Shown: piece by piece, positions 1 to 4,251 of the stretch | Layout of the letters: every line of letters begins with the position of its first letter | How positions within the stretch are numbered: position 1 is the first letter of the stretch | Source: a virus | Taxonomy: Duplodnaviria > Heunggongvirae > Uroviricota > Caudoviricetes | Virus record (IMG/VR): IMGVR_UViG_2648501485_000018 | DNA: 4,251 nt | Strand: one strand, 5' to 3' | Position numbers and translations under genes: made by a program | Notes under the pieces: generated by a model | Told to the model about the DNA's origin: nothing | Database searches by the model: none | Seen by the model: only the letters and a program-made list of their open reading frames with translations

Positions 1-3000
1 TCCCGGATAGCTATACGCTATTCCGTTAAAGATAATGGGCGGAATAATGATTTGACGGTCAAAGTTATGATCATCGCTGATGGTGACTGTAACCGTCCCG
101 TTTGGTGTTTCCGTGTTACCCCACGTACCAGCCTGTTTCGGAAATGATTTGGATACAGCTTTAACGAAATCCCCTCTGACTTGGGTCGCCTCCAGCATGC
201 CCTTAATCGTACAGTTTTCATTTACCGTGACATTGTTGAGCGTCCCGGCGTTCGCATTCACACTGCCACTGATATCCGCATTTTTAGCAGTCAGCTTTCC
301 GTCCGGTGTCAGGGAAAATGCCGGTGGATTGCCACCGCTGGTAATAGTGGGGGCCGTCAGGCGTTTCAGGAACACGTCATTCATGAATATCTGGTTGCCC
401 TGCGCCACAAACATCGGCGTTTCATTCCCGTTTGCCGGGTCAATAAACGCGATACGGTTAGCGGCAACCAGAAACTGGCTCAGCTTGCCTTCCTCCGCGT
501 CCTCCATGCTGAGGCCAATACCCGCGACATAATGTTTGCCGTCTTTGGTCTGCTCAATTTTGACGCCCCACATGGCATTCCATTTATCGTTAGCGTCCTT
601 CCACTCTTTCGAAAACTCCTCCAGTTTGCTGGCGTTATCCTCCGTCAGCTCAAAGTTTTCCAGCAGTTCCTTGCCGAGATGCGTTTTATTGATCAACCCT
701 TTATAAAAATTCAGATAACCTTCCGCATCATCGCTCGCCCGACCGACGGCCTCCACAAATGCCGATTTACCTACGGTGTTCACGCTGCGGATATAAAAGT
801 AATAATCATAACCCGGCTTAATATTGCTACTGGCGGCTATCCAGTACAGCGCCGTACCAAGATAACGCGCGCTGGTTTCAACCTGCCTGATATCGATAAT
901 CCGCTTTTCCGAGAACCAGAACTCAAACTGCACCGTCGGGTCATATACAGCCAGTTTCGGGACCGCTGTTATCTGAAAATACCCTGGTATCAGTTCAATA
1001 GTGACAGGCGCTGCCGGTGCCGCAATCCGGAACGATACCGATGCCGGATCGCCCTGCTGCCCCCACGCATTTACCGCCCGGACTGTCAGCGTGTAACGCC
1101 CCAGCGCCAGTTGCGTGAAGCGGTATGTGGTTTCCGTCGTCCGGGCCGTGCTGACCAGCCGCTCACTGCCGTCGTCCGCTGTTACGGTCAGACGGAGCAG
1201 GAAGCTCACGCCCTTCACCACCTTCGGTGTGTCCCAGCGCGCCAGCACCTGATACTCCCCGCTGTCTGCGGTGACTTCGGCAGTCAGGTGCTGCACCGCT
1301 GGCGGCGTGACACCATTCACCGTGCCGCTCTGGTCGCCGTCAAAGTGCGCCCCGTTATCCACGATGGCCTCTTTTTCCGGGACATGCTGCACGGCTGTGA
1401 CAGCGTACGTGCCGTCGTCGTTCTCACGGACACTCACGCAGCGGAACAGGCGCTGGCGCAACGTCGGCAGCTTCAGCCCCCATACGCTGTATTCAGCAAC
1501 ACCGTCAGGAACACGGCTCACTTTTACCTTCACGCCGTCGGTGACGGACTGAACCTCCACGCTGACCGGATTGCCACTTCCGTCAACCAGGCTTATCAGC
1601 GTGGTACCGGAGGATGGCAGCGTGATTTCACGGTCGAGCGTCAGCGTCCGGGTCTGGCTGTTCACCGCCAGCACACGACCACCGGTGCTGATACCGGCAT
1701 AGTCATCATCACAGATTTCAATGACATCGCCCGGCACATGGCGAAGCCCTTCTGCGCCCACGCAGAAGTCCACGGTCTGCGTTTCCAGCAGTTCTGTTTT
1801 AATCAGCCACAGCCCGGCGCGGTGTGCCTGCCCCCGGCTGGTACAGCCAAAAGCATCCATCTTCGTGACGTTACGACCATAACGGGCAATGGCCTGCGAA
1901 TCCTCCACAAGCTCTGTCGCCGTCTCCCAGCCGTTATCCGGGTCAATCCAGTTAACCTCAACAGCATTATGGCGGTCCTTCAGGGCGCTAAAACTGTAGC
2001 GGAACGGCGCGCCATCATCCGGCATCACCACATTACTGCGGTTATAGGTCCACACCTTATCCGACGGTCGGTCCTGCACGAACGTCAGCGTCTGCCCGTT
2101 CCATACCGGCATACAGCGCATCGCCGAGCAGAAATCACTGAGCACATCCCACGCCTTGCGCTGTGTGGTCAGGTACGCATTACAGGTGATGCGCGGCTCC
2201 GTGCCGCCAAAGCCGTCCGGCACCGACTGGTCGCAGTACTGGCCGATGACATACAGCGCCCATTTATCCACATCCGCCGCACCAAGACGTTTCCCCATGC
2301 CGTAGCGCGGATGGGTAAGCATATCCCACAGACACCAGGCCATGTTGTTGCTGTATGCCGGTTTAAACGTTCCGTCCCAAATACCGCTGTATTGCCGCGT
2401 CTGCGGGTTATAGTTCGACGGCACCTGCAGAATGCGCCCGCGAAGATGATAATTACGGCTCACCTGCTGGCTGCCGAACTGCTCCGAATCCACCTGTACG
2501 CCGACCAGTGCCGTGTTCGGGTAGCACTGTTTCACATCGATGATTTCGGTGTATGACGACCAGAGCGTTTTGTTCTGCAGCTGGTCTGTGGTGCTGTCCG
2601 GCGTCATCCTGCGCATCCGGATATTGAACGGGCGCGCCGGCAGGTTACCCACCACCACCGAGGCCAGATACTGCGAGGTGGTTTTGCCCTTAATGGTGAT
2701 GTCTTTTTCCGTCACCCAGCCACCGTTACGCTGTATCTGAACCAGCAGGCGGACTTCCGACGGATTCCGGTCCCCCTTTGAGGTGGTTTCCACCAGTGCC
2801 TGCACACCGAAGGTAAAACGCAGACGATCGATGTTTGCAGACGTGATAGTGCGGGTGATCGGCGTGTCGTATTTCACTTCCGTACCCAGCACCGTCTCAG
2901 AGCCGGAGGATTCAAATCCCTCCGGCGGAGTCTGCTCCTGCTCACCAGCCCGGAACACCACCGTGACACCGGAGATATTGGTATTACCCTCACTGTCCAG

Positions 3001-3156
3001 CACCGGCGTACTGTTCAGCAGCACGCTTTTTAATCCATCCACCGGACCGTCAATCGGCCCTTCACTGATGGCATCAATCACACTCAGCAGCTGCGAGGAC
3101 TTCAGGTTGTCCTTCGCTTCGCGCGGGGTATGCCCCTTACTGCTGCCTTTACCCAT
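1..3156 (-). CDS. J: Tail tip central fibre / host specificity protein J (lambda gpJ family); 3' end beyond the window, 1052 codons present
   Basis: ATG at 3156..3154 on the minus strand, preceded by GGAG (plus 3165..3168) with an 8-nt spacer. Hand translation gives [19 protein letters not shown] at the N-terminus, [20 protein letters not shown] from 2041..2100, and [20 protein letters not shown] from 1021..1080 (FN3-like region), all in the same frame. These match my recollection of lambda gpJ. Codons in 1..360 were checked one by one and contain no stop, so the ORF runs off the left edge. It is absent from the ORF track only because it has no stop inside the window. Lambda gpJ is about 1132 aa, so roughly 80 codons are missing. 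Confidence 0.95.
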
Positions 3157-3170
3157 TCCTCACGCTCCAT

Positions 3171-3198
3171 AAACGACAAAACCGCCCGCAGGCGGTTT
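3171..3198 (-). terminator. Perfect 8-bp inverted repeat (stem-loop) followed by a U-rich tract in the I-J spacer; possible weak intrinsic terminator or RNA-stability hairpin
   Basis: Plus 3179..3186 aaaccgcc, loop 3187..3190 cgca, plus 3191..3198 ggcggttt, which are exact reverse complements. On the minus-strand transcript the stem AAACCGCC-UGCG-GGCGGUUU is followed by UGUCGUUUAU, then the J ribosome-binding site and ATG. Confidence 0.3.
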
Positions 3199-3216
3199 CA
3201 CATAAAACATTCTGCA

Positions 3217-3483
3217 TCAGCGACCAATCACCACAACCTGACCACCATCCCCTTCATCTGCCGTGCTGATCTCCTGAGAAACCACACGAGACCCCACACG
3301 CATTTCACCGTACAGAACGGGCAGAACATTGCCCTGGGCAACCATGTTATCCAGTGAGGAGAAATAGGTGTTCTGCTTACCGTTATCCGTTGTCTGCGTT
3401 CGGGGAGTTCGGGCTTTAGGAGCCAGCATCTGTGCAACACCACCAAGCGTCATCACTGGCACCCAGAGAAAACAGAAGATCAC
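3217..3483 (-). pseudogene. I: Tail assembly protein I, C-terminal conserved portion in a different frame from the N-terminal part (frame-disrupted I gene)
   Basis: ORF-track protein ...LGGVAQMLAPKARTPRTQTTDNGKQNTYFSSLDNMVAQGNVLPVLYGEMRVGSRVVSQEISTADEGDGGQVVVIGR corresponds to the C-terminal 76 residues of lambda gpI as I recall them. 3860 and 3483 are in different codon phases, so this is a different frame from the N-terminal ORF. Stop TGA at 3219..3217. Possible restart codons are GTG 3483..3481 (overlapping the upstream TGA as GTGA) and ATG 3453..3451. Confidence 0.65.
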
Positions 3484-3860
3484 TCGAAAGCAATACCGAC
3501 TCCCGGCATCCAGATAGCAACAGCAATAACAGCCGCACCCAGCACTGCCTGAAAAACACCGCCACTTTTAGCACCCGCCAGACGCGGCACAATGTGGATC
3601 ACGGCACCATTTGCCAGCGGCTCATTAAGACGGGCAGATAATTCGGTTTCACCTGCATCACGCCCGGCAATCCGCACCTGATACCAGCCCTCATTCAGTT
3701 TCTGACGAAACGCCGGGAGCTGTGTGGCCAGCGCACGGATAGCTTCAGCCCCCGTTTTCACACGAAGGTCGATGCGGCGACCAAATCGTTGTAAATCCCC
3801 GTAAAGGCAGATGCGTGCCATGCCCGGTGACGCCAGAGGGAGTGTGTGCGTCGCTGCCAT
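3480..3860 (-). CDS. I: Tail assembly protein I (lambda gpI family), N-terminal portion; frame ends prematurely at TGA 3482..3480
   Basis: ORF-track protein MAATHTLPLASPGMARICLYGDLQRFGRRIDLRVKTGAEAIRALATQLPAFRQKL... matches the lambda gpI N-terminus as I recall it. ATG at 3860..3858 lies 103 nt inside the 3' end of K, the same overlap I recall for lambda K/I. Similarity to gpI is lost after about codon 110 (VLGAA, near plus 3531), and the frame stops after 126 codons. Confidence 0.8.
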   Translation of the reverse strand: MAATHTLPLASPGMARICLYGDLQRFGRRIDLRVKTGAEAIRALATQLPAFRQKLNEGWYQVRIAGRDAGETELSARLNEPLANGAVIHIVPRLAGAKSGGVFQAVLGAAVIAVAIWMPGVGIAFE

Positions 3861-4251
3861 TTGTCGGTATACCTCTCTCGTTTACTCAGTTGTTCAGGAA
3901 TATGGTGCAGCAGCTCGCCGTCACCACAGTAAATGGCGGCATGATTCGGCACCGATGAACCAAAACAGCACAGCAGCACATCGCCCGGCTGCGCCGCTGA
4001 CAACGGCACCTGATACAGCCCTGTGGCCTCCAGATTATCCAGATAGAGATTCTGACCGTTACGCCACCAGTCATCCTCACGATGAAAATCCGGCATCTCA
4101 ATCCCCGCCAGATGGTAAGCGTCCCGGAACAGCGTGTAACAGTCCGTCACCCCGTGCTCAAAGCGCCGCCCGGTAAGATGTGGCACACAGCGGAACTTGT
4201 GAATCGCCCCCCGGCAGACCAGCCACCACGGCAAATCACTCTGCACCTGCA
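3758..4251 (-). CDS. K: Tail tip assembly protein K (lambda gpK family), C-terminal NlpC/P60-like domain; 5' end beyond the window
   Basis: ORF-track protein (V/M)QSDLPWWLVCRGAIHKFRCVPHLTGRRFEHGVTDCYTLFRDAYHLAGIEMPDFHREDDWWRNGQNLYLDNLEATGLYQVPLSAAQPGDVLLCCFGSSVPNHAAIYCGDGELLHHIPEQLSKRERYTDKWQRRTHSLWRHRAWHASAFTGIYNDLVAASTFV matches lambda gpK residues from about 85 to the C-terminus as I recall them. The M at 4246 is an internal GTG (Val); the frame stays open to the window edge (the preceding bases read ..CTG CAG = LQ). Candidate catalytic Cys in the VTDCYTLF motif (codon at plus 4139..4141). Stop TGA at 3760..3758. Confidence 0.93.
   Translation of the reverse strand, partial: QVQSDLPWWLVCRGAIHKFRCVPHLTGRRFEHGVTDCYTLFRDAYHLAGIEMPDFHREDDWWRNGQNLYLDNLEATGLYQVPLSAAQPGDVLLCCFGSSVPNHAAIYCGDGELLHHIPEQLSKRERYTDKWQRRTHSLWRHRAWHASAFTGIYNDLVAASTFV

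Follow-up and report, generated by a model that had tools for sequence, protein, structure and literature searches.

Does the broken reading frame of a lambdoid tail gene in a viral record reflect a mutation in a prophage, a gene that works in two pieces or the way in which the sequence was put together? The stretch of DNA analysed here (the window, 4,251 nt in full) carries three tail genes, K, I and J, all on the minus strand according to the ORF listing and the annotation of the closest records (Table 1). The question arises at gene I. An earlier note on this DNA, made from the letters alone, had offered three explanations for the split frame: a decaying, possibly defective prophage, a two-piece I gene with a coupled restart, or sequencing error.

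Gene I belongs to the family of lambda gpI. It is positioned between K and J, a feature of that family, and its start sits 103 nt inside the 3' end of K, an overlap that is identical in lambda (14773..14875). The N-terminal ORF carries the domain PF06805 (Lambda_tail_I) at residues 14-97, with an E value of 4.5e-25 and 88.3 bits against a Pfam gathering cut-off of 23.8. Over its last 79 residues the product agrees with lambda gpI and with both of the natural alleles described below, and the plug and beta-strand region of lambda gpI (residues ~145-223) has its homologue in the C-terminal ORF of the window, from MTLGGVAQML to the end. A single ORF of ~213-223 codons is found in both natural alleles; in the window, I consists of a 126-aa piece and an 88-aa piece.

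In the window, the ATG at 3860 opens a frame of 126 codons that ends at the TGA at 3482..3480. The GTG at 3483..3481 overlaps this stop (GTGA) and opens the frame with the conserved C-terminus, and a third frame over 3455..3475 encodes LFSLGAS. Across the lesions the window string reads GCTTTCGAGTGATC...GCCAGTGATGACG. As a description of the string the earlier note was accurate. Its placement of the N- and C-terminal parts of gpI in different frames agrees with the ORF listing, the PF06805 match and the alignment of the C-terminus with lambda gpI; the TGA that it named as the end of the N-terminal frame closes the minus-strand ORF 3480..3860; and the lambda motif ILFSLGAS, which it gave as the counterpart of the third-frame peptide, is contained in lambda I as GILFSLGAS. 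It had further deduced at least two frameshifting indels, and two were located, both of them +1 insertions, at ~3485-3490 and 3454-3458.

Table 1. Features of the window, with the evidence on which each assignment is based.
Feature	Position	Strand	Basis or remark
Gene J (tail tip attachment protein), 5' 1052 codons	1..3156	-	open throughout
X/Y interleaved tract, first to last Y-derived site	1879..3941	-	base-by-base X/Y comparison
GC-rich hairpin followed by T-run, in the I-J spacer, outside the artefact	3177..3200	-	folding and conservation
Gene I, composite lambda gpI homologue, 644 nt, out of frame	3217..3860	-	two extra bases
C-terminal ORF piece of I, 88 aa from GTG	3217..3483	-	authentic gpI frame from MTLGGVAQML onward
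Second +1 in I, very probably artefactual	3454..3458	-	gaps in the X/Y alignment at columns 793 and 797 (sense 794 and 798)
N-terminal ORF piece of I, 126 aa, starts MAATHTLPL	3480..3860	-	ORF listing
First +1 in I, very probably artefactual	3485..3490	-	gaps in the X/Y alignment at columns 761 and 766 (sense 762 and 767)
Gene K (C40 peptidase tail tip assembly protein), 3' part	3758..4251	-	ORF listing and annotation of closest records

Lambda I is a misleading reference for this locus; the proper comparators proved to be intact alleles of 642 nt. Thousands of E. coli genomes carry such alleles. Records that cover at least 80% of the I locus number 3,253 from complete E. coli genomes and 44 from phages, and among the matches listed the functional phages and the top E. 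coli matches each have a single annotated I ORF. Two alleles are central to what follows. Allele X is the prophage of E. coli FDAARGOS_1059 (identical bar one site over 1852..4251, as is that of O111:H2 12A), and allele Y is the prophage of E. coli 14EC007 (identity taken over the same stretch, 1852..4251). In both, gene I is an intact ORF of 642 nt and 213 codons; the proteins are WP_000090851.1 (X) and WP_052931387.1 (Y), each annotated in RefSeq from an internal ATG that gives 603 nt. The start-codon annotation of I is inconsistent across records: intact homologues in RefSeq begin at this internal ATG (codon 14; 603 nt) or at a later start (576 nt), and the lambda-equivalent ATG yields 642 nt (window 3821..3860).

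The 642-nt alleles are 10 codons shorter than lambda I, in the hydrophobic central segment. Compared with these nearest relatives, the window copy therefore has two bases extra and has not lost 28 nt. The lengths in the earlier note are correct (644 nt for the window locus; 672 nt, or 223 aa, for lambda I), and its "net 28-nt loss" holds as arithmetic against lambda. The cause is different: a natural in-frame length difference of 30 nt (10 codons), to which two bases were then added.

The differences between the window and X are unevenly spread and directional. The whole window is 98.3% identical to X over 4249 nt, with 72 differences (70 substitutions and 2 indels); no substitution falls in 1..1200 and 22 fall in 3401..3600. 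At 68 of the 70 substitutions the window base is the alphabetically higher one on the gene strand, and at 2 it is the lower. The upward changes comprise C>T (25), A>G (16), A>C (8), C>G (7), G>T (7) and A>T (5). Pairs of natural alleles are symmetric in alphabetical direction (39:45, 111:121, 170:177 and 153:152), whereas the window shows a surplus of roughly 60 "upward" differences against each natural allele with which it was compared. We know of no mutational or repair process that favours all six substitution classes in alphabetical order.

The second source of bases is Y. The window state occurs in other natural alleles at 71 of the 72 differences from X, and Y has the window base at every one of the 70 substitutions. 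Distances are exactly additive: that from the window to X (70) and that from the window to Y (277) sum to the distance between X and Y (347), and the window therefore never differs from both parents together. Over 1852..4251 all window bases but one are those of X or Y. Divided into bins of 200 nt, sense positions 201-2400 (window 1852..4051) show the same rule wherever X and Y differ, the window having the higher of the two letters; the exceptions are a few alignment-dependent columns near indels and the site at 3319. X and Y are identical over sense 1-200, and from window 1851 downward the window equals X alone, with a single difference at 1237. In gene order, the tract between the first and last Y-derived sites runs from the 3' end of K through the whole of I and the I-J spacer to ~1280 nt into J. 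Two other assignments of the parents were rejected: (i) E2348/69 in the place of X fits worse, with 118 differences, 29 of them against the rule, and (ii) 14EC007 as Y across the full window fits 1852..4251 only, the rule being violated from 1795 downward and the window equalling X beyond.

The rule suffices to rebuild the sequence. X (extracted locus 3001-5398) and Y (extracted locus 3110-5507) were aligned globally with simple scores, and for each column of one of the co-optimal alignments the higher letter was taken and a gap was made to lose. On the gene strand this selects the alphabetically higher base, which is the lower base on the plus strand of the window. The product is 2400 nt long and equals the window at 2399 of 2400 positions, both frameshifts in I included; the only mismatch is at 3319. 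The informative columns number 131 (61 X-derived and 70 Y-derived), and 130 of them obey the rule; under a 50:50 expectation the probability of at least 130 is ~5e-38. The parent of origin switches 67 times across these columns. A rule blind to biology thus predicts which base stands at the variable sites and at the indels, with bases attributable to two haplotypes that are interleaved at the level of single bases.

Each of the two lesions coincides with a pair of gaps in the X/Y alignment. At the first pair, X reads GCTTTC-AG and Y reads A-TGGCGAG, and the window retains the C at 3490, present in X only, and the G at 3485, present in Y only. At the second, X reads GGGGGC-AGCGATG and Y reads CGGTGCCAGT-ATG; here the window retains the C at 3458 (Y only) and the G at 3454 (X only). 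Because all four unpaired bases are retained, each site gains one base, the gene grows from 642 to 644 nt and an apparent double frameshift results. Through codon 125 the N-terminal ORF has residues of X or Y; its codon 126 (E) and its stop occur in neither parent, and the frame begun by the GTG has 9 residues that are absent from both. The window K is intact and its protein is that of X; J within the blended tract has residues mixed from X and Y and no stops. Both remain open there only because, in these genes, X and Y align without gaps.

The window from 1852 to 4251 is a composite of two alleles, and we hold it to be almost certainly a composite consensus of two intact K-I-J copies, the split in I being an artefact and not a real mutation. 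Two copies, ~95% identical, would have been collapsed into one contig or consensus; they may have been two lambdoid prophages of a single genome, collapsed as paralogues (matching places per E. coli genome have a median of 3 and a maximum of 15), or they may stem from a sample that contained two strains. Sites that differ would have been given the base that comes first in the alphabet on the plus strand of the window (last on the gene strand), and a base opposite an alignment gap would have been kept. A plausible step of this kind is the replacement of IUPAC codes by the first listed base (R by A, Y by C, K by G, M by A, S by C and W by A). Where I diverges most, in the segment for the hydrophobic helices, X and Y have the same length, yet a nucleotide alignment pairs them with two compensating gap pairs. 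Among the three options of the earlier note, sequencing error comes nearest to this explanation; the cause that we favour lies in the merging of two intact alleles and not in an error at the level of reads.

Below ~1851, where Y (14EC007) contributes nothing, either the second copy must have been X-like or the collapse must end there; a second copy that is X-like below ~1851 was found in no complete genome searched, and exact X and exact Y were found together in no single complete genome of the collection searched. Two sites stand apart. The one at 1237, the sole deviation from X in the pure-X part, obeys the rule (C over A). The one at 3319 is the sole informative site that breaks it, for it calls for T, the base of X, and the window has C, the base of Y. 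Taken together, these sites point to small differences between the source copies and the database genomes, and to a second copy that is X-like below ~1851.

The chimeric 50-mer that spans the lesion was matched exactly nowhere among the genomes of 185,579 species (one genome each), 2.9 million viral contigs and 241 million metagenome records. Among 5,426 complete E. coli genomes the best match to the central 141 nt was 89%, and exact look-ups of the truncated N-terminal product, made for both start codons, returned no record.

Two other records bear on frameshifts in this gene cluster. In the I gene of Escherichia phage mEp332 (PV340541.1 34044..34684), a propagated phage, one base is missing from a C-run (AAAAC-CCCCG) ~190 nt before the normal stop; as annotated, the protein is unrelated over its C-terminal ~65 residues and its frame closes 11 nt early. 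Either the record contains a homopolymer sequencing error or the phage tolerates the loss of the gpI plug region. In E. coli tcmA_3 (NZ_CP059835.1 14983..15727, a complete genome), the annotation marks K, which encodes a C40 family peptidase, as a pseudogene with a frameshift; frameshifts of these tail genes, real or sequencing-derived, therefore exist in public records.

Were the lesion real, gpI would be cut within two hydrophobic helices and its N-terminal domain parted from the plug and beta-strand region. One way to arrive at this would be a genuine pseudogene, in which two independent +1 insertions in a decaying lambdoid prophage truncate gpI after residue 125. The stop and the frame changes are present in the given sequence, and tail genes with frameshifts do occur in prophage records (K of tcmA_3, as annotated, and I of the mEp332 record). 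The substitutions around a genuine pseudogene lesion should, however, carry no computational signature, and those in the window run 68:2 in one direction over all six base-pair classes, for which there is no known mutational process. Blending of two intact alleles predicts both insertions and all neighbouring substitutions, K and J in the tract are likewise blended yet open, and a second example was present in none of the collections searched. We regard a pseudogene as very improbable, and the decaying or defective prophage of the earlier note is not supported, since the inserted bases and all nearby substitutions derive from two intact natural alleles. It would be a still greater surprise if the window had arisen by natural recombination between X-like and Y-like prophages, the frame having been shifted where crossover junctions were imprecise. 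Mosaicism is a feature of lambdoid tail genes, and the window bases do come from X or Y, but 67 switches at 131 informative sites in 2.1 kb, many of them between adjacent bases, are not what recombination or mismatch repair would give, namely tracts, and alphabetical order predicts the parent at each site. Strand-specific hypermutation of an X-type prophage, for example by deamination, is so improbable as to be negligible: the differences from X are mostly C>T and A>G on one strand, but the other four classes (A>C, A>T, C>G and G>T) run just as much in one direction, and all 70 "mutated" bases are exactly those of the natural allele Y. Biased mismatch repair was ruled out on the same grounds, six classes being one-directional and each variant base being that of Y.

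A last possibility is that I is tolerated in two pieces, the C-terminal one re-initiated at the GTGA by translational coupling or reached by programmed frameshifting. The overlap of the GTG with the TGA would suit a coupled restart. However, the frame from the GTG encodes 9 residues that neither parent has, and what lies between the lesions is lost. The lesion also divides the region of the hydrophobic helices, which has been located inside the tail tip by cryo-EM (PMC11101478). Homologues in functional phages do not share the arrangement: among the matches listed, these and the top E. coli homologues have one annotated I ORF, and no other searched public sequence has the split, with the central segment matched at 89% or less. 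The merging of two alleles accounts for the arrangement in full. We therefore give a tolerated two-piece gene hardly any credence, and the two-piece reading of the earlier note finds no support. Equally slight is the chance that the window is a true single molecule encoding gpI as an N-terminal ubiquitin-like domain and a C-terminal plug restarted at the GTGA. On such a reading, a lambdoid tail could be assembled from gpI in two pieces or in the absence of the full-length protein. In cryo-EM work the plug and beta-strand region of gpI forms a trimer within the tail tip cone (PMC11101478).

Downstream of I, the 60-nt I-J spacer (3157..3216) folds at -21 kcal/mol (z -2.6). It contains a hairpin at 3177..3200 on the minus strand, GAAACCGCC-UGCG-GGCGGUUU, followed by UUGUCGUUU. 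The hairpin is near-invariant in X, Y and lambda, with variation in the loop only. A consensus terminator scan of it made no call, although folding shows the hairpin.

If, as we conclude, the window is a composite consensus, the split I has no biological meaning and the underlying K, I and J are ordinary intact lambdoid alleles. The consequence is one of data quality. About 2.1 kb of the window (1879..3941), and possibly more of the source, would be a synthetic blend of two haplotypes, and pseudogene calls, new alleles, amino-acid variants and recombination inferences drawn from the blended tract would be spurious; the same caution would apply to other regions of the source that were treated alike. 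A one-directional alphabetical bias against the nearest relative offers a cheap test for this artefact that can be used on other windows.

Among known systems, lambda gpI (NP_040599; PF06805) is the natural reference for this gene, which it resembles in its position between K and J, the 103-nt K/I overlap, the N-terminal domain, the near-identical C-terminal 79 residues and the I-J hairpin. X and Y differ from it in being 213 aa long, 10 residues shorter in the hydrophobic central segment, and the window copy differs in being out of frame, very probably only through the blending of X and Y. With WP_000090851.1 and WP_052931387.1 the likeness is closer: when they are aligned with the window I, one of the two has its base at every position, but each of these has one open frame of 642 nt, whereas the window I has 644 nt and interleaves both. 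The window as a whole most resembles the consensus artefacts that arise from collapsed repeats or mixed strains, with which it shares single-base interleaving, a deterministic choice of base, inserted bases that are kept, and spurious frameshifts at the points of greatest divergence between haplotypes.
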